Shown: piece by piece, positions 1,381 to 13,211 of the stretch | How the letters are laid out: the number at the start of each line of letters is the position of its first letter | How positions within the stretch are numbered: the first letter of the stretch is position 1 | Origin: Promethearchaeota archaeon | GTDB taxonomy: Archaea; Asgardarchaeota; Lokiarchaeia; Sigyniarchaeales; SOKP01 | Length of the DNA: 64,000 nt | Assembly: GCA_048937405.1 (NCBI GenBank) | Contig: JBHLNF010000004.1 | Location: 64,001-128,000 of the forward strand | Reading direction: 5' to 3' | Translations under genes and position numbers: made by a program | The notes under the pieces: generated by a model | The model's database searches: none | What the model was told of the DNA's origin: nothing | Seen by the model: the letters and a program-made list of their open reading frames with translations, nothing else

Positions 1381-2154
1381 TTAGGTTTTTTGAGCGTAAA
1401 CAATTGAAGAACCCCCAAAAATATCGATTTTTTTCTCATATTCTTTTAAAACCTTATTAATAACACCTGATTTTATATCTTTTCGTAATTTTTCGCATCC
1501 AGCTTCTATTTGATCCTCTGTTAATAGTGCGAACATCGAATCTCCATCGCGGAAATTCTTATCTAAATATTTTTCTGGTCTCTGATTCAAAATTACTGAA
1601 TCTTTATAGCATACTTTTACTCCTATATTTAAAAATCCAATCTTTTTAAGTAGCAGAGTTAATTCATTTGTATCAAGAAATCGTTTTAATTCCCATTTTA
1701 AACCCTCTGGAAAATAATAAGTATACCAATATGTTTTGATTTGATTATGAGAACATGTATGTATTGCTATAAAACCTTTTTTACGAAGAATACGATAGGC
1801 TTCTTTTAAAAAGACAAATTTATCTCTAATATGATGAATAACTTGAATGGCATATAATCCATCAAAAAGATCTGAACAGAAAGGAAGATTTATGATATTA
1901 CCATTAATAAATTCTAAATTAGGAAACTTAGACACAGCTTTCTTAATCATAGCCAAAGAAAGATCTATACCAATAACATTTTTTGTAAACTGTTTTAGAC
2001 CAGCAGTATAATTTCCGGTACCACATCCCATATCTAAAACTAACGAATTAGAATCTATGTAGGTTAATTTTATTAAAGCATCTAACGTCTTATCATTAAT
2101 ACCTCTACTTAAATCGTAAATTTGGCTAAGTTTATCGTATTTTATTTCTCTCAT
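1381..2154 (-). CDS. Class I SAM-dependent methyltransferase (UbiE/Methyltransf_11-like)
   Basis: VLDMGCGTG motif I, GIDLS, FD..Y motif. Confidence 0.85.
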   Translation of the reverse strand: MREIKYDKLSQIYDLSRGINDKTLDALIKLTYIDSNSLVLDMGCGTGNYTAGLKQFTKNVIGIDLSLAMIKKAVSKFPNLEFINGNIINLPFCSDLFDGLYAIQVIHHIRDKFVFLKEAYRILRKKGFIAIHTCSHNQIKTYWYTYYFPEGLKWELKRFLDTNELTLLLKKIGFLNIGVKVCYKDSVILNQRPEKYLDKNFRDGDSMFALLTEDQIEAGCEKLRKDIKSGVINKVLKEYEKKIDIFGGSSIVYAQKT

Positions 2155-2229
2155 TAATATTCTAAATAAAATTTAACTAGTTTACAAATTTTTCGAATAA
2201 AAAACTATAAAAACAGAAATTCTATTTGT

Positions 2230-2916
2230 TTATAAATCTATTAATTCAGTTAAACTCTCTATAACATAATCTGGTTGAAATTCCCACTGGTCATAGGGTT
2301 TTGTTTCAATTTTAAATTGTCTTTTAATTAGGCATGATGAAATATTTGCTTTTTTTGCAGCTATTATATCGACAATTGAATCCCCAATCATTAAGGCTTT
2401 AGAATTCTTAGGATTATAATTGAACTTTCTTAAAATTGAAAAAATACCTTTAGGAGATGGTTTTGCAAAACTTTCATTAATTCCAGGACCCATACTAAAG
2501 ATGTCATGAAAAAAATCGATTATGTTAAATTTTTTTAAGATATAGTCTACAACATAACCGGTTGTATTAGTTAAAATAGCAAGTCTATTAGATTTTTTAT
2601 AAATCTCTTGGAGTATTTCAATAACATCATTAAATAATCCTATTTTGTTTTGTTTAATTAGGACTTTTCGTTGCTCAAAATCAATTTTATCATATATTTT
2701 CCAAAAATTACGTGGTTCAAGAATACCCCACTTATTCAATATCTTTATAAATTCATTTCCTGCTAACCAAAATTTTAGTCTTTCTTCTCTATTTGGTATT
2801 TTAGGAGCATTCAATGTAAGTAAAGTAAGTGTAAAAATTTTTTCTGCATAAGCACGAATATTTCCCAGATCTAATAAAGTTCCATCTAAATCAAAAATAT
2901 AAAATTTAAAGGTCAT
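2230..2916 (-). CDS. HAD-superfamily hydrolase (phosphoglycolate phosphatase-like)
   Basis: FDLDGTL, LTN, KPSP, MIGDS..DI motifs. Confidence 0.9.
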   Translation of the reverse strand: MTFKFYIFDLDGTLLDLGNIRAYAEKIFTLTLLTLNAPKIPNREERLKFWLAGNEFIKILNKWGILEPRNFWKIYDKIDFEQRKVLIKQNKIGLFNDVIEILQEIYKKSNRLAILTNTTGYVVDYILKKFNIIDFFHDIFSMGPGINESFAKPSPKGIFSILRKFNYNPKNSKALMIGDSIVDIIAAKKANISSCLIKRQFKIETKPYDQWEFQPDYVIESLTELIDL

Positions 2917-2943
2917 TTTCTTACTAAAAAAATGAAAAATTAT

Positions 2944-3297
2944 TTAAAAATAGCCTATATGCCCTAAATTCTTCTTGTTCTCATCTAAAGCGTATACCAA
3001 TCCCATCGATAAAGGTTCTTCATCTTTATTTTTAGTAGATTTAGCTACTTTTTTTATAGTATCTAATTTTAAAATGAAAATACCATTACATTTTTTGCAT
3101 TTAATGTATATTTCTTTTGTTTGTATCTTATCATCTTCATATTCTTCTTTCTTAAAAGCTTTTAATAATTCACCATTCTCATTATCACAATTTGGCAAAA
3201 AACATTGATCTAAAGAGATCTTTTCCATACCTCGTCTAGCTAAAGCAATATATGCATAACTTGGAATTTCAAGCTTAAAATCTTCCTTATTTTCCAT
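2944..3297 (-). CDS. Hypothetical protein, possible zinc-binding (CxxxxC...CxxC)
   Basis: 117-aa ORF with CFLPNC and CKKC; co-oriented with HAD gene. Confidence 0.6.
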   Translation of the reverse strand: MENKEDFKLEIPSYAYIALARRGMEKISLDQCFLPNCDNENGELLKAFKKEEYEDDKIQTKEIYIKCKKCNGIFILKLDTIKKVAKSTKNKDEEPLSMGLVYALDENKKNLGHIGYF

Positions 3298-4867: not shown

Positions 4868-6391
4868 TCAAATTTCAAATTTAGGGTTTGAATTTTTACG
4901 ATATTCTGCATAACGACATAAAATGCTTAAGCATTTAGTTATATTATCCCACATACTAAATATAGGAATGTTGTGTTCTACAAATTTTTGCATCCAGCGA
5001 TATCTATAAGGAAATGGTCCAGCAAAAAATAACGGTTTTGAATATTTTCTCAGAAATCTTTTTACAGATTTTGAAATAATATTTTCAAAGATCTCATCTC
5101 TATTTTTCATGGTTTCATCTAATTCCATACCTGATTTTTCAATTATATCAAGTATATCATCAAAATCATAGACTCCAAAAACTAGAACTGCATCAACTTC
5201 GTTAGATTTCAGTAATAATTTTGGAAATTTTATAAACATGTTCATAAAGTTATTGTGAAAAGTAATATCAATAGGATTCACTGAACTTGCAGTTTTAGGA
5301 ATATCCTTTTTAATTATTGATTGTAATTCTTGTGAAAATTCAGGTACCTCCAATCCATATAGTTCAGAAGATTTAGTCATCATGGCACCAGGACCTCCAG
5401 AATCTGTTATAATTCCGACTCTATTCCCTTTTGGAAAGATGTTGTATGATTGAGCTTGTGACAAAGTTCTAAGATAAAACAAAAAATCCATAATTGAATT
5501 TGTCGAAATAATCCCTGTTTCTTTAAATACAGCTTCATAAATTTTATTGTCAGAACTAATTGATCCTGTATGACTCATTATAGATCTTGCTGCAGCTTTT
5601 GTACCTCCAGCATAAATTGCAACAATCGGCTTTTTGGGAGTAATTTTCCTCGATAATTTAATGAAATCCTTTCCACGTTTGATTTCTTCAATATAAAGCC
5701 CTATAACCTCTGTTTGAGGATCATTTTTAAAATACTGTAAGACATCAACTAAATCTATGTTTCTTTCATTCCCTACTGAAATAGATTTTCCTACTTTAAT
5801 TCCTAGATCATTTGTATAAAAAGCAGTTTGAGCCGCAACTGTACCTGATTGACTTATTAAGGAAATATTTCCTCGTTTATGAGGAAGATAAATCCAGAAA
5901 GTGTTAAAATAATTATCTTTTCTATTAGGATAACCATACCATCCATTATATATACCCAGACAGTTAGGTCCAATGAACCTCATTTTATATTTCTTAGCTA
6001 TTTTGTCAATTTGTTTAGATAATTCTATTCCATCAGCTCCAATTTCTCGAAATCCACCTGATGTAATAATCAAATGTTTTACACCTTTTTGACCACATTC
6101 TTCCATAACTTGGGGTACTATTCTAGTTGGCAATATAATAAATGCTAGGTCTGGTATAATTGGGATATCAAAAATAGTTTTATAAGCTTGAATTCCTTGC
6201 ACTTTTTCTAATCTTGGATGCACAGGGAATATATTTCCATTAAGTCCACCACCAGCAATAATATTTCTTAGTTGCATTGACCCCATTGTTGTCATAAGAT
6301 TATTATTAGCACCAAAAACACAAATACTCTTAGGATTAAGAATTTTTTCAAGAAAATGATCTTTAAGAGATTCTGACTTACTCTCACTCAT
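4868..6391 (-). CDS. Acyl-CoA synthetase (NDP-forming), alpha subunit
   Basis: NPKSICVFGA CoA-binding fold, GPNCLG, SQSG, SHTGS phospho-His, NPID. Confidence 0.9.
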   Translation of the reverse strand: MSESKSESLKDHFLEKILNPKSICVFGANNNLMTTMGSMQLRNIIAGGGLNGNIFPVHPRLEKVQGIQAYKTIFDIPIIPDLAFIILPTRIVPQVMEECGQKGVKHLIITSGGFREIGADGIELSKQIDKIAKKYKMRFIGPNCLGIYNGWYGYPNRKDNYFNTFWIYLPHKRGNISLISQSGTVAAQTAFYTNDLGIKVGKSISVGNERNIDLVDVLQYFKNDPQTEVIGLYIEEIKRGKDFIKLSRKITPKKPIVAIYAGGTKAAARSIMSHTGSISSDNKIYEAVFKETGIISTNSIMDFLFYLRTLSQAQSYNIFPKGNRVGIITDSGGPGAMMTKSSELYGLEVPEFSQELQSIIKKDIPKTASSVNPIDITFHNNFMNMFIKFPKLLLKSNEVDAVLVFGVYDFDDILDIIEKSGMELDETMKNRDEIFENIISKSVKRFLRKYSKPLFFAGPFPYRYRWMQKFVEHNIPIFSMWDNITKCLSILCRYAEYRKNSNPKFEI

Positions 6392-6460
6392 AGGATATTT
6401 TGAACCATATTTTTAACAAAGAAAATTAATAAAAGAACAAAAATATTATGAATGAAAAAT

Positions 6461-6682
6461 TTATGAAAGTTCTTCATCTCTTAGTAATTCAATTTCGGCA
6501 GAAAAACCAGGAATCATACCTTCATAATCAACATATGTTTTTTCCTTCAATTTCTTTAAAACCAGTCTTACACCTTCAAATTTCTCCTCACATAGAGCTT
6601 GTAATTCTTTGTAATTAATTTTACCACCATGTTCTTTTATCTTTTCAATGATAAATATTTCTTCTTGAGATAAATCTGACAT
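6461..6682 (-). CDS. Small winged-helix-like protein
   Basis: MSDLSQEEIFIIEKIKEHGGKINYKEL...LKKLKEKTYV wHTH-like pattern; alternative start 6697. Confidence 0.6.
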   Translation of the reverse strand: MSDLSQEEIFIIEKIKEHGGKINYKELQALCEEKFEGVRLVLKKLKEKTYVDYEGMIPGFSAEIELLRDEELS

Positions 6683-6721
6683 AATAAAATTTTTCATTTT
6701 TTAACTTATATAAATTTGTAT

Positions 6722-6942
6722 TCAATTTTTCCCTGTACTCCCAAATCCCCCTTGTCCACGTTCTGATCCAGTAAATTATCCGTTTCAACGAATTTATAAT
6801 TATATAATTTAGATAAAATAATTTGACAGATTCTTTCACCTTTTTTCAATGTAACTTCTTTATTTGAAAGGTTTACTACAATTGCCATCCATTCATTTCT
6901 ATAACCTGTATCATTCATATTAGGAGAATTCACAATTGATAT
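6722..6942 (-). pseudogene. dut: Displaced 3' half of a dUTPase gene (remnant)
   Basis: Reads ISIVNSPNMNDTGYRNEW...KGERICQII... then a 1-nt deletion, then SERGQGGFGSTGKN*; colinear with 8960..9181 of the intact dut; motif III GTID changed to NMND. Confidence 0.9.
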
Positions 6943-7218
6943 ATTATTCTATAAAAAGATGTAGTTTAAATATAATCTTTTGAAGATTGCTTTAATTAAA
7001 TAGAAAATTATTGGTAACACCTCACTTTTTCGCTTTCTTTGATAATCCATCAATTTGTACAGATTTATACATGATCATTACATCTATGAAAAATCAATGT
7101 ACTTTCTTAATTTATATGAGTTATACTCCACTTAGATAGTTATGATCGCCTATTTTTGTGAAAGAGATTTTCTTAGCTTTATCGCATTATTATATAAAAA
7201 AATGATTCCAATTATGAT

Positions 7219-8808
7219 ATGACTAAAAAATATTGTAAAAAAGCCCAACAAGAAGATAAAGTTAAAAATGTTCCATTAAAATTCAGAGAACCGAATAGGA
7301 TAGCTATTAAATTCATTTGGACTGAAATCGATAATTTCATAATCCTGGAAAGAGAAAAATTTGACAAAAAATTGAAATATTTAGAAGAAATTAAAGGATA
7401 TTATCTTCTGAAAAAAATTGTGATAAAATATTTAGATAGTATTAATTTAATTAGTGAAAATTTAAACTCTAGAAGTAAAATATTAATAGAACGTTCAATA
7501 GTGATGATATATTTATTAAGAGCCAAAAATCCTCCTTCAGATCGACAAATTGCACTTAAAGCAGGCTATAGACAAAGAGCATCTATTATTAAAAAGATAA
7601 AAATTCATTTAGGGATTTTAGAAGAAACTATAACTAACCATATTTGGATGGAAATTGATAATTTTATAACTCAAGAAAGAGAGATGCTTTATAGAAAATT
7701 AGGACATTTAGAAGAGAACGAAAAATATCACCTTATAAAGCAGATAATTATGAAATACTTAATTAATAAAACAAATTTAGTAGATAGAAATCTTTCCCTA
7801 ACCAAGAGAACATCCATAGAGCGAGTTATAGTGATAATTTACTTATTAAGATCTAAAAACTCTCTAAGATTTACTGACATAATGATAAAGTCAGGACATA
7901 AAGATGAAAAACTGATAAGAGATATTGCTAATTATTTTGGAATACATACTCAATTAGAAATTGATTATATAAATCAGACGAGAGTGTGTGCTAGATGTAA
8001 AAAGATGCTTAGTTTTGATAATTTTAATATTTATAATGGAAAAATAAGATCTATGTGTATAAAATGTGATAATATACGAGATGGAATAAACCGATTTCAA
8101 AAAAAATTATTAGCAACAATTTTTATCACATTAAAACACGAAAAAGGGATGACCGTCAAAGAATTCCTTCTGAGAGTGAATCGAGGTGAAAAATTCGATA
8201 TTGAAATTAAATGTCCAGAATGTGGACTTGATTTGTATTTCTTGCCTTCCTATGTTTTTCATCATCCTAATCCTGCACTAAAAACTATTTCCTGGAAAAT
8301 GTTAGCAGTTAAAAAAGTTGAAGACATTATCAGTAATTTAGATGAAGAACAATGTGTTTTTATATGTGGTAATTGTCATAGATTAAAAAAGTCAAAATTT
8401 ATTACGGAACATTTAGATGAAATTTTAACTGAGAATATTGATTGGAAGCATTATAATGACAATGAAAAAAAAAATCTTCGACGTTTAATTAGAAAGAAAA
8501 AGATTTTTGAAGATTTGTATAATGGTGTTTGTTTTTATTGTAAGAAACTAATGGTTGATAAACTTGCTATAATTGATTTTCATCATACTATTGAAGAACT
8601 TAAGGAATATAGTTGGAGTAAAGATCTTAGGGATAATGAAGATATCGAGTATGTTAAAAGGATATTATTAAAAGAAAAACAAGTAGGGGTTTGTCATAAT
8701 TGCCATTACATGGAAACTGCTATATATTTCAATAACAATAAGTATGAGATATTTAGTAAATACTTATCAGATAATATAGTAAATAAACTTAGATTAGAGA
8801 ATAAATGA
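7219..8808 (+). CDS. Free-standing double-HNH endonuclease-like protein with duplicated N-terminal helical domain
   Basis: Two CxxC...FHH...CxNCH modules, a CARC/CIKC zinc finger, and two ~105-aa repeats starting IW.EIDNFI..ERE. Confidence 0.75.
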   Translation: MTKKYCKKAQQEDKVKNVPLKFREPNRIAIKFIWTEIDNFIILEREKFDKKLKYLEEIKGYYLLKKIVIKYLDSINLISENLNSRSKILIERSIVMIYLLRAKNPPSDRQIALKAGYRQRASIIKKIKIHLGILEETITNHIWMEIDNFITQEREMLYRKLGHLEENEKYHLIKQIIMKYLINKTNLVDRNLSLTKRTSIERVIVIIYLLRSKNSLRFTDIMIKSGHKDEKLIRDIANYFGIHTQLEIDYINQTRVCARCKKMLSFDNFNIYNGKIRSMCIKCDNIRDGINRFQKKLLATIFITLKHEKGMTVKEFLLRVNRGEKFDIEIKCPECGLDLYFLPSYVFHHPNPALKTISWKMLAVKKVEDIISNLDEEQCVFICGNCHRLKKSKFITEHLDEILTENIDWKHYNDNEKKNLRRLIRKKKIFEDLYNGVCFYCKKLMVDKLAIIDFHHTIEELKEYSWSKDLRDNEDIEYVKRILLKEKQVGVCHNCHYMETAIYFNNNKYEIFSKYLSDNIVNKLRLENK

Positions 8809-8959
8809 GACATTTTTTATTAACCATGAAAAGAATAAATGTTAGGGGAATTATTTAAAACTAGAACTCAGAAATTGATCTATTCCCACCATTTTCTGTA
8901 TCTAATTAAAAAATTATTCTAACGAATCAGATTATTTTTTGAAAGAAGAAAAAGGATTA

Positions 8960-9466
8960 TTATTTTTTACCAGTTGACCCAAATCCCTCTAAACCGCGTT
9001 CTGAATTAGGTAATTCCTCCATTTCAATAAATTCGTATTCATACATTTTAGCGAGTATTATTTGACAAATTCTATCTCTCTTTTTCAAAATAATCTTTTT
9101 ATTAGAAAGATTTATAACAATAGCGATCCATTCGTTTCTATAACCTGAATCAATTGTACCCGGAGAATTAACAATGGATAATCCTTCAAGTGCAAATCCA
9201 CTTCGAGGTACAACCTTAAAATAATAGCCTTCTGGTATGGCTGTTGAAAAACCTAAAGAGCACCCTACAAGTTCTAAAGATTTTAATGTGTAAGAATCTG
9301 AGTGCACATCAATTAGTTCTTTTTTCCCATTTTTAGAGACTATTTTTTTAAATCCTATAATTCTAGCATCTGCCCCAGCATCCCCAGGTCTAGAGTGATT
9401 GGGGGGAGATACACCTACAGCTAATGTTTTGATGGGGATTGATATTTTCCCATTACTATCTTCCAT
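8960..9466 (-). CDS. dut: Trimeric dUTP diphosphatase
   Basis: GDAGAD, PRSG, NSPGTIDSGYR, RICQ, RGLEGFGSTG (motifs I-V); start uncertain (9466/9487/9499). Confidence 0.93.
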   Translation of the reverse strand: MEDSNGKISIPIKTLAVGVSPPNHSRPGDAGADARIIGFKKIVSKNGKKELIDVHSDSYTLKSLELVGCSLGFSTAIPEGYYFKVVPRSGFALEGLSIVNSPGTIDSGYRNEWIAIVINLSNKKIILKKRDRICQIILAKMYEYEFIEMEELPNSERGLEGFGSTGKK

Positions 9467-9891
9467 TTCTATCTGATTACGTTTCATAATATATATCAAT
9501 ATTTTGTTGTATATTTATATAAAAAAAAATTTTTATTAACTCCTCATTAAACTTAAAGAAAGCAATATATCTCTTGTGAATTATATTTATTCTCAATATA
9601 CAATCAATTATAAAATAAATAAATAATAATAGGGATATAATTTTGTCATTTAAATTGTATAAGAATTTGTATAATTTTGCATTAATATAATAATTAATTG
9701 AGAGTATTTTCAATTTATCGAATGAATATCTTTTTCATTTTTATAAGGGAGTAAATCATTCTTCATTCTAAAAATCAACTCTTCAAAAATTGAGAATTAT
9801 TCTAAAAAATATAATACCTTCAATGATAATTTGAGCAATAACTAATTATGCTAATTCAATAAGAAAACAAAGTCTAAAATATCTCCATAAA

Positions 9892-10063
9892 TCAATAATG
9901 ATAAATATCAAAAATCCACGCTTTTCCACTTGTATTTTCTATTGCTTTTGCAACTTCTTTTTGCCTTCCTGGAGCAATCGCAAGCATACAACCACCACCA
10001 CCAGCTCCCATTTGTTTTGCTCCAAGTGCACCAGCATTTTTAGCGGCTTCACATAATTTTAAA
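9892..10063 (-). pseudogene. C-terminal fragment of a GHMP kinase (galactokinase/mevalonate kinase family)
   Basis: Translates LKLCEAAKNAGALGAKQMGAGGGGCMLAIAPGRQKEVAKAIENTSGKAWIFDIYHY*; no N-terminal part upstream. Confidence 0.8.
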
Positions 10064-10163
10064 ATTTTTCAAAATAAGAAAAAAAGTCGAGATATCATTT
10101 TAATGGATAACTCTAATAAAAACATTATTCATTTAAACATATTATAAATCATTATATTCCCTA

Positions 10164-10301
10164 TGGTGAAAAAATTGATTAATATCGATAGATACGACCC
10201 TAAAAAAAGATTAAGAAGTATTAAAGGCAATTTTTAAAGATTTTATAGGGATCTTATCTTTTTTCTTTTCTCTTTGGGAAATCTATGGAAAGTAATTAAA
10301 C
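10164..10301 (+). pseudogene. Decayed copy of the RBS and first ~40 codons of the GNAT-like gene at 12187
   Basis: tggtgaaaaaattgattaatatcgatagatacgaccct... aligns with 12176..12313 (tggtgaaaaaaatgattgttatcgatagatacgaccct...); +1 insertion and in-frame stops. Confidence 0.88.
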
Positions 10302-10311
10302 TATACAAAAA

Positions 10312-11790
10312 TTAATTACAGTAAATTGGAGGTTTTTTGTCGATCCATGGTCTATCTTGTTCTAATTGTGCTGCTAAACGGAAGAGAGTAGCTTCATCAC
10401 CAAAAGGAGCTGCAAATTGAATACCTATTGGGATATTATCAGCAGTCCAATATAAAGGAACTGACATAGCAGGTTGACCACTTATATTATAAATTGTAGC
10501 AAAAGCGTTAAGTTTGGTTAATAATTGAATAATCTTTCCTGCTTTTGATAAATTAACTGAAGAGAAAGAGCCAGATTTTATTGGAGGAATTGTAAGAGAT
10601 GTGTTCAGTAGTAGATCAAAATTTCCTTTATGAAACCAATATGCTAATTTCCGTGAGAAACGTTGACAATGTTCTACTGCTATTAGATAATCAGTCCCCG
10701 TCTGAGTTGCTGCCATCTGATAAATTAACCATGTAAGAGGCTCTAATTCATTCTGGGTTATTTTTTTATTTAGCTTTCTTTCCCAATATCTAATTATCTG
10801 ACCAGTAGAGCTGGAAAATATAATACCAAAATGTAAGAAAAGGTTTTCATAACTTAATTCTTCAGAATTTACTTCTTCAACGTTATGACCTAGTGTTTCA
10901 CAGAGTTGAGCTGTATCTCTTATTGCTTTTTCACATTCTGGATGAACTTTTGTCTTAAAGCTCCAGCCACTAGGAATTGAGGTTAAATATCCAATTTTCA
11001 GACGACCTACATCCTCTTCAACTTCTTCTAAGAAAGCACGTTTCTTTGGGGGTGCATAATATGGATCCCCTATGTCTGGTCCCGATGTTGCATCTAAAAG
11101 AGCAGCAGAATCTCTTACAGTGCGAGAAAGAGCATGATCTACGGCGATTCCATTAGCATAATCTCCAAGATATGGACCAAGAGGATTTCTAGCACGAGTA
11201 GGTTTCAACCCAAAAACCCCACAACAAGAAGCAGGTATACGAATAGATCCTCCTCCATCGTTTCCGTGAGCTATAGGTACGATCCCTGTTGCTACAGCTA
11301 CTGCTGATCCACCACTTGAACCACCAGGGATTATATTCGGATCCCAAGGATTTAAAGTAGGACCAAATAACTTAGGTTCAGTTGTCGGAAGACACCCAAA
11401 TTCAGGGGTATTTGTCTTTCCAACCGTGATTAATCCAGCTGTTTTATGCCGTTTTACTAATTCTGTATCTAAAGGCGCAATATATCCATGAACTACTGCA
11501 GAACCCTCACTTAATGGAGCATTACCATATTCTGCAATAAGATCTTTTAATAAAAATGGAACTCCACCAAAAATCACATCAGTCTTTTTACCTGAACTAA
11601 TATCATTATCCCATTTTTTCGCTTTTTTACGTGCAGTATTATACATCTTATGGATTACAGCATTAATTTTAGGATTAATCTTTTCAATTCGTTCGATAGT
11701 TATCTCTACTAATTCAGATGACTTAATTTCTCCGTCTCGTATCATTTTTGCTAAGCCTAATGCATCATATTCAACCAATTTAGTTTCCAA
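10312..11790 (-). CDS. Amidase-signature family amidase
   Basis: [36 protein letters not shown] (Lys-cisSer-Ser triad); TTG start. Confidence 0.92.
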
Positions 11791-11881
11791 TAAGTCTCAC
11801 GCTTAATATTTGTTTTTTATTGGATTATTTTTTTAATAGTTATAAATTAAGATAAATAGGCTTTTATAGATATGTGTATAT

Positions 11882-12037
11882 AAATCAGATTATAAATCAG
11901 TTCTCTAATTTATCGATAATTTACATGAATTAGTAGATAAATATTAAAAATTAGTAAAGGAACTTGAAAAAACAGAAAAACCTAAAAAAAGTAAAAATTA
12001 TATAGAATTGGTGGAAAAATTACCTGAATTTTTATGA
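11882..12037 (+). pseudogene. Possible decayed 3' gene fragment of unknown family
   Basis: Protein-like frame KSDYKSVL*FIDNLHELVDKY*KLVKELEKTEKPKKSKNYIELVEKLPEFL* with two internal stops. Confidence 0.4.
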
Positions 12038-12186
12038 TATTTCCATCATATTATAAGTTTTTTGCATTCTCAAGTTGAATTTTTAATCTATCCTTTTTTG
12101 TTTCTATTTTAAACAAAGATTTTCATAAAAAATTAATAATATTTTTAATTATTTTGATAAATATTAAAATTTCATTGGTGAAAAAA

Positions 12187-12642
12187 ATGATTGTTATCGA
12201 TAGATACGACCCTAGAAAGGATAAAGAAGCATTACAAGAAATTTTTAAAGAATTTATCGCTAATAAAGCTTATTTCTTCTCTCATTGGGAAAAGTTTGAG
12301 GAAGAACTAAATCGGAGAACTCTCGATCTTCAATATAGAAATTCAATGGTTATTGCAAAAGAAGATGGAAAAATTTTAGGTTTTGGAACGTATACCCTTT
12401 TTAGAGATTATTTAGGAAATGATAGAGTACTTATTCATCAAGTTCTTACAAGAAAGATTGATTCTTTTAAATTAGGGATAGAAGAGAAAATAGTGCGGGA
12501 ATTGCAATTATATGTTAAAAGAACCCTAAAAATTGATAAAGTCTATTTTATTTGTCCTGATTCTGATGGGGCTTCAAGAAGTCTTTTCCTAAAACTTGGA
12601 ATAAAGAAATCACGTTATATTTGGTATGAAAATGAAATTTAA
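12187..12642 (+). CDS. GNAT-fold protein
   Basis: VIAKEDGKILGFG, SLFLKLG pattern; GGTGA RBS before ATG 12187. Confidence 0.7.
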   Translation: MIVIDRYDPRKDKEALQEIFKEFIANKAYFFSHWEKFEEELNRRTLDLQYRNSMVIAKEDGKILGFGTYTLFRDYLGNDRVLIHQVLTRKIDSFKLGIEEKIVRELQLYVKRTLKIDKVYFICPDSDGASRSLFLKLGIKKSRYIWYENEI

Positions 12643-12683
12643 TTAAGATTCTATTTTTTTCTTAAAGAAAGTGAAAAATCTTC

Positions 12684-13211
12684 ATGACAAATTTAAATAA
12701 TGCTAAAGATCTTATTAAAAAAGTTAAAGAATTAAGAAATCAAGAAAATTTTGAAGAAGCTCTAAAAATAATTGAAGATTTATTTGAAAATTTTCCCAAT
12801 TCTGAAGAAATTAAAGAAGTATTAATTGACACATTATTTGATTATGGAGGATATCTCAATGATTATTATACAATTGGATATGAAAAAGCTCAACAATATT
12901 TTGAGAGAATTACTATTCTAAGCCCACAAAATTATAGAGCACACTATAATTTAGGATTGGCTTATTTTAATTTAGGAAAAATTGAAAACGCTAAGATATC
13001 TTTCGAAAAAGCTTTAATAATCAAACCAGATTATAAGTATTGTCTTTATAATCTAGGAATAGTCTATGAAACTTTAGGACAATATGAAAAAGCGTTAGAT
13101 TATTTTGAACAAGTATTAGAAATCGATTCGGATTTTAAATATGCATTATCAGCAAGATCTCAAATAAGAGAAATATTAGATAAATTAAAATATAAGAAGA
13201 GAAGGGATTAA
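12684..13211 (+). CDS. Tetratricopeptide repeat protein
   Basis: AHYNLGLAY...FEKAL...P; LYNLGIVY...ALDYFEQVL. Confidence 0.9.
   Translation: MTNLNNAKDLIKKVKELRNQENFEEALKIIEDLFENFPNSEEIKEVLIDTLFDYGGYLNDYYTIGYEKAQQYFERITILSPQNYRAHYNLGLAYFNLGKIENAKISFEKALIIKPDYKYCLYNLGIVYETLGQYEKALDYFEQVLEIDSDFKYALSARSQIREILDKLKYKKRRD

Follow-up and report, generated by a model that had tools for sequence, protein, structure and literature searches.

Homing elements usually avoid harm to their hosts either by splicing, as introns and inteins do, or by patching the end of the gene they enter, as the WHO elements of yeasts and the mORFs of fungal mitochondria do. The free-standing homing endonucleases of phages, such as Seg and Mob of T4, sit beside nucleotide-metabolism genes and spread by "intronless homing", that is, by double-strand-break repair with co-conversion, the donor being protected by sequence differences; to our knowledge, these phage elements lie between genes and have neither a duplicated or split target nor a spare copy of it. 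In the synthetic HomeR and ClvR drives of insects, an engineered Cas9 directed against an essential gene is linked to a recoded, resistant copy of that gene. The WHO elements of Torulaspora and Lachancea, which target FBA1, carry only the 3' half of their target, fused in frame to the host 5' half, and their nuclease is of the LAGLIDADG, intein-derived type, with cleavage having been shown for WHO6 (Coughlan et al. 2020, PMC7282813; Osborne et al. 2026, bioRxiv 10.64898/2026.08.13.744650). The mORFs are found in atp6 of Allomyces macrogynus and in atp6, atp9, cox2 and nad3 of Glomus, and their horizontal origin was inferred by phylogeny (Beaudet et al. 2013, PMC3630166). Here we describe a unit from the chromosome of a Promethearchaeota archaeon (Lokiarchaeia), seen in a window of 64,000 nt (positions 64,001 to 128,000 of contig JBHLNF010000004.1, assembly GCA_048937405.1). 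This unit, a cassette of 2.75 kb at approximately 6952-9700 of the window, is inserted in the dUTPase gene, dut, of its host and holds two genes: one for a putative HNH endonuclease of 529 amino acids (aa) and one for a complete dUTPase, referred to here as dut'. The frameshifted second dut 3' part that lies beside it is referred to as the scar.

We consider it probable that the cassette is a homing-type selfish element of the whole-gene, "home-and-rescue" kind, in which a site-specific double-HNH endonuclease travels with a complete dut' under its own promoter. We also lean, though less firmly, towards seeing in it a natural whole-gene drive of this kind in archaea, with homing nucleases of a new family, double-HNH enzymes of a single chain, that attack an essential housekeeping gene and spread between Asgard species with a complete, Trp-deleted and recoded copy of it under its own promoter, so that host genes are replaced wholesale and stacks of dead halves are left behind. 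Like the WHO elements, the cassette would home without splicing; its endonuclease gene stands beside an essential metabolic gene, the replacement differs from the target at the putative cleavage site, the old target is left as a dead fragment, and the target site diversifies. Repeated homing stacks fragments in the WHO system, to which the two dut 3' scars in one of our related loci (L087) may be compared. The cassette differs from the WHO elements in bringing a complete gene and promoter, with the host gene split into two dead halves, and in its double HNH nuclease, archaeal host and dut target; it is known from sequence, whereas WHO6 is known from shown cleavage. With the mORFs it shares an endonuclease open reading frame (ORF) in a conserved gene, the use of a foreign, diverged C-terminal part while the native one is left downstream and groups with the host lineage, and a horizontal origin deduced from phylogeny. 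The mORFs, however, are hybrid genes with LAGLIDADG or GIY-YIG ORFs, often in frame, in organelle genomes, whereas the cassette, in an archaeal chromosome, replaces the whole gene and has its HNH gene free-standing and convergent. A free-standing nuclease beside a nucleotide-metabolism gene is also the likeness to phage intronless homing, from which the cassette differs in splitting its target and carrying a spare copy. The logic is the same as that of HomeR and ClvR, with the difference that the cassette is natural, protein-guided and archaeal.

An earlier note made from the letters of the window had listed four features, namely an intact dut and the nuclease gene convergent with it, a dut 3' remnant carrying a frameshift, and a gene for a winged helix-turn-helix (wHTH) protein, and all of these were found where it had placed them (Table 1). 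The wHTH label is that of the note, the Pfam match of the gene reaching only E 0.07. In what follows, L denotes related loci or metagenomic contigs, G the genomes of relatives (G000 being the source genome) and P proteins of the nuclease family. About 20 genomes of the same genus have an uninterrupted dut with the wHTH gene within ~30 bp, that is, an empty site, so the original dut-wHTH order proposed in the note was correct. A divergently transcribed GNAT-like gene lies upstream of dut in the same-genus genomes, and an acs-like gene follows the wHTH gene in about two thirds of the ~20, as it also does in the window. In the closest relative, G001, the dut-wHTH-acs locus and the window are colinear (~83% nt identity) from acs across the wHTH gene and into the scar as far as ~6935-6954, and colinearity resumes from 12150. 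It follows that the scar represents the 3' end of the host's own dut, as had been proposed, and that 6952-12149 is extra.

The scar retains clear traces of its origin. Its ORF piece of 75 aa matched the Pfam dUTPase family (E 1.4e-8) and in a search of the source genome it scored E 7e-22. It reads ...SIVNSPNMNDTGYRNEW...KKGERICQ...ETDNLL followed, after a 1-nt frameshift near 6756-6786, by SERGQGGFGSTGKN-stop; both this frameshift and the loss of motif III, GTID having become NMND within the stretch SIVNSP-NMND-TGYRNEW, had been reported in the note and are present. The scar is 71-85% identical to the C-terminal part of the relatives' proteins and 67% identical to that of the intact copy in the window, in agreement with the consensus-like character ascribed to it. 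The DNA identity of the scar to dut' is ~75-79% from the S-I-V-N-S-P codons on, which is where the note had seen clear similarity begin. The junction and putative cut, however, lie five codons upstream, at the Leu-Trp pair after motif II: four more degenerate scar codons extend back to a TAG in place of the host Trp codon, TGG.

The gene carried by the cassette is complete. It matched Pfam dUTPase PF00692 (E 8.5e-20) and the NCBIfam dUTP diphosphatase equivalog NF001862 (106.2 bits versus a cut-off of 103), and it keeps all five motifs (GDAG.D, PRSG, GTID.GYR, RICQ and RG..GFGSTG). By these family thresholds and motifs the product of dut' is a predicted trimeric-family dUTP diphosphatase, which would be active without the conserved Trp discussed below. 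This is the only intact dUTPase gene detected in the source genome with this query. The ORF at 8960-9466 was indeed intact and ends at 8960, but its start is more likely at 9487, where an ATG (MKRN...) is conserved in all other copies. A TATA-like box lies ~35 nt 5' of the dut' ATG, and another A/T-rich TATA-like box, found by sequence repeat analysis at ~7186-7204 upstream of the nuclease gene, may represent a promoter.

Both halves of dut', and the DNA upstream of it, are of cassette type. Compared with the cassette copy in L037, identity is 88% in the N-terminal part and 85% in the C-terminal part; compared with the genus relatives, it is 62-73% and 67-82%, respectively. The 215 bp upstream of dut' are likewise cassette sequence (86% nt identity to L037). 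A tree including the full-length cassette copies of the window and L037 united these two in a clade with support of 100/99 and a long stem within the genus radiation. These observations bear on an end replacement of the WHO or mORF type, in which the cassette would consist of the HNH gene and a dut 3' half only, and the resident dut would be a hybrid. Such a layout is known for WHO elements (PMC7282813) and fungal mORFs (PMC3630166), and within the window only a 3' scar is seen and the similarity between the two copies starts mid-gene. The earlier note had accordingly taken the resident dut as chimeric and the element as carrying only a dut C-terminus. This part of its proposal failed, because the resident gene is cassette-type in its N-terminal half and in the DNA upstream and because three related loci keep a separate host 5' half (see below); the element thus carries a whole gene and splits that of the host. 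A chimeric dut made of a host 5' part and an element 3' part was ruled out by the same half-gene identities and loci, and the hybrid gene that defines the WHO and mORF class was absent at dut. We consider an end replacement very improbable at this locus, while it may hold for a relative of the nuclease that is associated with a PAP2 gene, given that a genome carrying a copy of that relative (G013) has no PAP2 5' fragment.

The one departure of dut' from an otherwise invariant feature coincides with the place where the cassette is inserted. All 29 host-type genes of the order (29/29) have the motif G-[LMN]-[AS]-L-W-x-G at the insertion point, whereas all six cassette copies (6/6) read G-F-A-L-E-G, the Trp codon having been deleted and three substitutions gained in the flanking codons.

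Close homologues of the 529-aa protein (69-82% identity) were found on metagenomic contigs, and all of them are located at dut. The cassette layout at dut recurs in approximately eight independent assemblies, and in L086, L087 and L088 both halves of the host gene have been kept. In these three loci a host dut 5' fragment is followed by ~250 bp of conserved non-coding DNA, a complete dUTPase gene, the convergent nuclease gene, the conserved right end and the host 3' part. The 5' fragment of L086, which derives from the same organism as L037, comprises residues 1-101 and ends ...VVPRSGLAL; that of L087 is the same (residues 1-101, ending PRSGLAL), whereas that of L088 is shorter, decayed and partly deleted, and in L090 just 36 nt of the host dut 5' half are left. 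What comes next is the same in all four loci, namely the left end of the cassette. On the other side, the right junction of L041 reads .../WDGLSIINTP (the slash marking the junction), so that its 3' scar begins at the Trp codon itself. In the window, L037, L040 and L088 the right junction sequence ...TTTTTATA/G is shared and TAG replaces TGG at the start of the scar; that all four have TAG is consistent with homing accompanied by co-conversion of neighboring bases.

The 5' fragment stops, and the 3' scar starts, within 5 nt of the Leu/Trp codon boundary. Complementary host halves that meet in this way are the signature of a single simple insertion of a whole-gene cassette. These data showed that the cassette sits in the host dut within the Leu-Trp codon pair after motif II (...PRSGLAL/WDG...) and that the host gene has been left as two dead halves. 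An end replacement, as set out above, would not produce the separate host 5' half before a complete dut' in L086, L087 and L088, nor a codon boundary shared by the 5' fragment and the 3' scar. The broader claim of the note, of a nuclease-borne mobile element that is aimed at dut and brings a site-altered replacement, is supported.

The same anatomy speaks to two other explanations. A local tandem duplication of dut, with the nuclease gene landing between the copies, one copy decaying and the whole being inherited vertically in the absence of homing, would account for two dut sequences in direct orientation with a gene between them, and one locus, L090, does have two full-length dut genes. We regard such a history as highly unlikely, as the host remnants complement each other, one with residues 1-101 and the other running from 102 to the end, and do not amount to a decayed full copy; its expectations of vertical inheritance are considered with the divergence data below. 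An assembly or binning artefact that joined the dut alleles of two strains is of slighter probability still. The source genome is an assembly of 29 contigs with 5.7% estimated contamination; nevertheless, ~8 independent assemblies from different samples agree in the order of parts and in the junction sequences, and the scar is colinear with the host flank.

Some related loci contained degraded nuclease genes. In L088 (8001-9575) the nuclease gene is a pseudogene broken at three points, with at least two frameshifts, while dut' is intact. In L090 (1-1650) a full-length host-type dut, whose site reads GLALWNS where GLALWDG is usual, abuts a nuclease gene cut down to the last HNH module (94 aa); this truncated gene is followed by dut' and by the 36-nt host remnant, dut' being the second of the two full-length dut genes. 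The frameshifted and the truncated genes fit the stages of decay expected of a homing gene. An upstream ORF of L090 encodes a 1455-aa P-loop ATPase-like protein with a GxxGxGKT motif. In L087 (5300-7787) one dut 3' scar follows another at a distance of ~2 kb, scar A beside the wHTH gene and scar B beside the nuclease gene, with a DUF362-like ORF of 267 aa between them. The stacked scars suggest repeated invasion, as in the WHO clusters.

Comparisons of divergence indicated that the cassette is younger than the host flanks. For the same pairs of hosts, the synonymous divergence (dS) was 0.09-0.6 for dut' and 0.2-0.6 for the nuclease gene, while the proportion of synonymous differences (pS) in the wHTH gene was 0.6-0.9, which is saturated; in the pair L086 and L088 the dut' dS was 0.09 versus a wHTH pS of 0.91. 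The non-coding cassette DNA of the window and L037 is 82-86% identical at the nt level, versus 78% for the wHTH coding sequence. A close homologue of the nuclease is present in one of 54 genomes of the genus, namely G000. The host 5' fragment of L086 has 95.5% nt identity to the intact dut of G022, with a dS of 0.19 and a nonsynonymous divergence (dN) of 0.026, so that the filled site of L086 and the empty site of G022 belong to near-conspecific hosts. The cassette has moved horizontally between long-diverged hosts. A tandem duplication with vertical inheritance is contradicted by a cassette far less diverged than the host flanks, by its presence in 1 of 54 genus genomes and by an empty site in a near-conspecific genome. 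The dN/dS ratio was 0.13-0.23 for dut' in the more diverged pairs and 0.23-0.38 for the nuclease gene, and both cassette genes are kept by purifying selection. Two traits of homing elements are seen at the locus: the point of insertion is precisely the same from host to host while close relatives have the site empty, and the element has spread horizontally. Of a third, the sparing of the element-bearing allele by a nuclease that cuts element-free ones, the altered site in dut' is what is seen.

The association with duplicated gene ends extends beyond dut. The gene of P0007, which is 38% identical to the window nuclease, converges with that of a PAP2 phosphatase and has on its other side a 3' fragment of PAP2 (71 aa, 44% identical); the G013 copy of this PAP2-associated nuclease gene had no PAP2 fragment. 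P0010 has a gene on one side and, on the other, a degenerate repeat of that gene's last 26 codons. The check proposed in the earlier note, as to whether HNH homologues elsewhere sit beside duplicated gene ends, therefore had a positive outcome for three target genes (dut in ~8 assemblies, PAP2 and a third gene).

It is also conceivable that the cassette was moved by another agent, such as general recombination, an integrase acting in trans or a virus, with the HNH protein being cargo, for example a defence or repair nuclease. In favor of this explanation, nuclease cleavage is something that we infer, many distant family members are without duplicated flanks, and P0006 (49% identity) is encoded between two fatty-acid genes with no duplication. 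On the other hand, the 2.75-kb unit is devoid of genes for an integrase or transposase, of inverted repeats at its ends and of any intron or other Rfam match; there is one precise site in a conserved gene, and this site is altered in the carried copy; members of the family recur by duplicated ends of three genes, and the nuclease is under purifying selection. We therefore consider another agent unlikely. No terminal inverted or direct repeats were found at the cassette ends, where there were only A/T-rich chance pairs, and no Rfam family matched in 6000-12800. A group I or II intron or an intein was rejected as a candidate for the cassette on the grounds that no Rfam intron was found and that nothing interrupts the dut' ORF, the nuclease being encoded apart from it on the opposite strand.

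Residues 224-395 of the 529-aa protein matched the PHROG phage family phrog_2255, "HNH endonuclease" (E 7.7e-16, 59 bits), and the protein also matched phrog_3106 (E 2.3e-10). An exhaustive family search gave 174 related clusters, and one relative, P0012, reached 26.7 bits against PF01844, for which the cut-off is 21.4. The layout of the protein comprises two helical N-terminal repeats of ~105 aa each (~30-240), a CxxC...CxxC zinc ribbon (~257-283) and HNH modules at ~332-387 and ~438-496; shorter relatives have a single N-terminal repeat. In the family alignment both modules have the pattern CxxC-(L)P-x-FHH-...-CxNCH. In the numbering of P0001:235-529, the residues concerned are C98/C101, H114 H115 and C149 N151 C152 H153 in module 1, and C204/C207, H221 H222 and C258 N260 C261 H262 in module 2. 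Across 30 family members these Cys, His and Asn positions either did not vary or were conserved to at least 90%, and the same held for 42 aligned single modules. The modules aligned colinearly with the HNH domain of McrA, in an alignment to both halves of the E. coli protein (E 0.019), and a profile search of PDB sequences gave marginal matches only (Hpy99I, McrA, PacI and Stc1 zinc fingers). By its sequence, then, the protein is assigned to the HNH (beta-beta-alpha-Me) endonucleases, and the presence of two complete modules in one chain suggests that a monomer may be able to cut both strands.

A structural model of the C-terminal 295 residues had a predicted local distance difference test (pLDDT) score of 94. 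Using VIA-align, module 2 matched mostly HNH domains (Cas9 HNH, Cap5, T4 endonuclease VII, Gme HNH, IscB and ZRANB3), with Z of only 2.5-3.9, and the zinc ribbon matched Hpy99I with Z 5.2; Foldseek of the C-terminal model against the PDB gave nothing at E <= 0.001. The N-terminal repeats are assumed to be the part that recognizes DNA. Two regions of the source genome, C29:23843-25579 and C11:19634-19936 (L002-L005, L003), encode larger proteins in ORFs of 899 and 666 aa; the former has three stretches that match the CxxC...HH...CxNCH module region and the latter has one.

Taken as a homing cassette, the unit would work as follows. The nuclease would cut dut alleles lacking the cassette at or near TTA/TGG, with each of the two HNH modules cutting one strand. 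The break would be repaired by copying the cassette-bearing allele, the two halves of the host dut serving as homology arms. The carried dut' would escape cutting through its 3-nt deletion and the neighboring substitutions, and since it would supply the cell with dUTPase, the insertion should cost the host little. Once the host halves had decayed, dut' could no longer be lost. In the source genome, the host 5' half would later have been lost by a local rearrangement, leaving only the 3' scar.

Several points weigh against this interpretation. Cleavage by the nuclease, its cut site and the resistance of dut' are deduced from the letters of the DNA. No significant HNH match to the 529-aa protein was obtained from Pfam (including PF01844) or NCBIfam, and the structural Z scores of the C-terminal model are low (~3-5). 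The N-terminal repeats (model pLDDT 81) gave no informative fold match, the best being Z 6.2 to unrelated helical proteins, which is why we speak of their role in DNA binding as an assumption. The junction can be placed only to within 5 nt (TTA, TG). The wHTH gene has only ~40 synonymous sites, which makes its divergence figures noisy, so that the dS contrast with the cassette genes is large but uncertain. Flank duplication was found in none of 28 distant paralogues of the genus, two paralogues of the source genome itself, P0006 and P0008, within flanks of ~0.2-1.5 kb per side and with seven loci having little or no left flank; the duplication habit is accordingly documented only in the closer clade. 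The interpretation also calls for DNA to pass between archaeal species. Lastly, a host dut 5' half was looked for upstream of dut' in the window and was not found, and as a result the picture of a complete insertion derives from the related contigs and not from the source genome.

The region to the left of the cassette may explain this last point. Compared with L086, L087, L088 and L090, cassette homology in the window lacks the last ~6 nt of the left end, and where the host dut 5' half would be expected, 9701-10131 has an orphan 3' fragment of a GHMP-kinase gene (Table 1). G000 has no close intact copy of this kinase (the best being 43% identical in aa). Beyond the fragment, an amidase gene is flanked by two copies of the start of a GNAT-like gene, one of which is dead; none of the five closest relatives (0/5) has the amidase gene at this locus, and there is no nuclease gene in the amidase/GNAT unit (10132-12292). 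In our reading, these features arose when the host 5' half was later removed, either by rearrangement of the locus or by a second cassette event.

Table 1. Features in and around the dut cassette, with positions in the 64,000-nt window.
Feature	Position	Strand	Remarks
wHTH-like gene, original 3' neighbor of dut	6461-6697	-	marks host flank, outside cassette
Native host dut 3' half (scar)	6722-6951	-	former Trp codon (TAG 6949-6951) to original stop
Cassette right end and region upstream of nuclease gene	6952-7218		82% nt identity to L037, non-coding
Nuclease gene, 529 aa	7219-8808	+	convergent with dut'; double HNH by sequence motifs
Spacer between nuclease gene and dut'	8809-8959		62% nt identity to L037, length varies
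dut', 175 aa, five motifs	8960-9487	-	Pfam and NCBIfam matches
Altered target site in dut'	9176-9199	-	G-F-A-L-E-G-L-S versus host G-L-A-L-W-D-G-L-S
Cassette left end, upstream region of dut'	9488-9700	-	homology to other copies ends at 9700
Orphan GHMP-kinase 3' fragment, 56 codons	9892-10062	-	78% nt identical to last 170 nt of a 324-aa kinase gene elsewhere in G015
Dead copy of GNAT-like gene start (ribosome-binding site and first ~50 codons)	10132-10301		77% nt identical to 12144-12292; frameshift and stops
Amidase gene	10312-11790	-	36% G+C versus 29% in the window
Intact GNAT-like gene	12154-12642		

Three further observations were made at these and related loci. A 30-nt inverted match (87%) links 10055-10084, to the left of the dead GNAT start, with 12142-12171, around the intact start, and may mark a recombination or promoter feature. 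In L018 (G009, 2059-3147) a gene for a 362-aa exported repeat protein, unrelated to the cassette, lies between dut and the wHTH gene. In a relative whose genome is a single contig, G023 (G023:C1:498455-498709, L085), the dut match covers only residues 85-168 in an open frame of 121 aa, which could reflect a truncation, a frameshift or another interruption.

Within the limited set of papers searched, we found no description of such elements in archaea. Next to splicing and end patching, the cassette would represent a third solution to the problem of host harm, in that it brings the whole gene; it does so in an archaeal chromosome and with a nuclease of a different predicted fold, and it has passed from species to species. 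The family of the nuclease, a compact one, probably cuts both strands as a single chain, and the defined candidate target makes it directly testable. For the Asgard archaea, the cassette would provide a concrete route for the horizontal replacement of core metabolic genes and explain orphan gene halves in these genomes.

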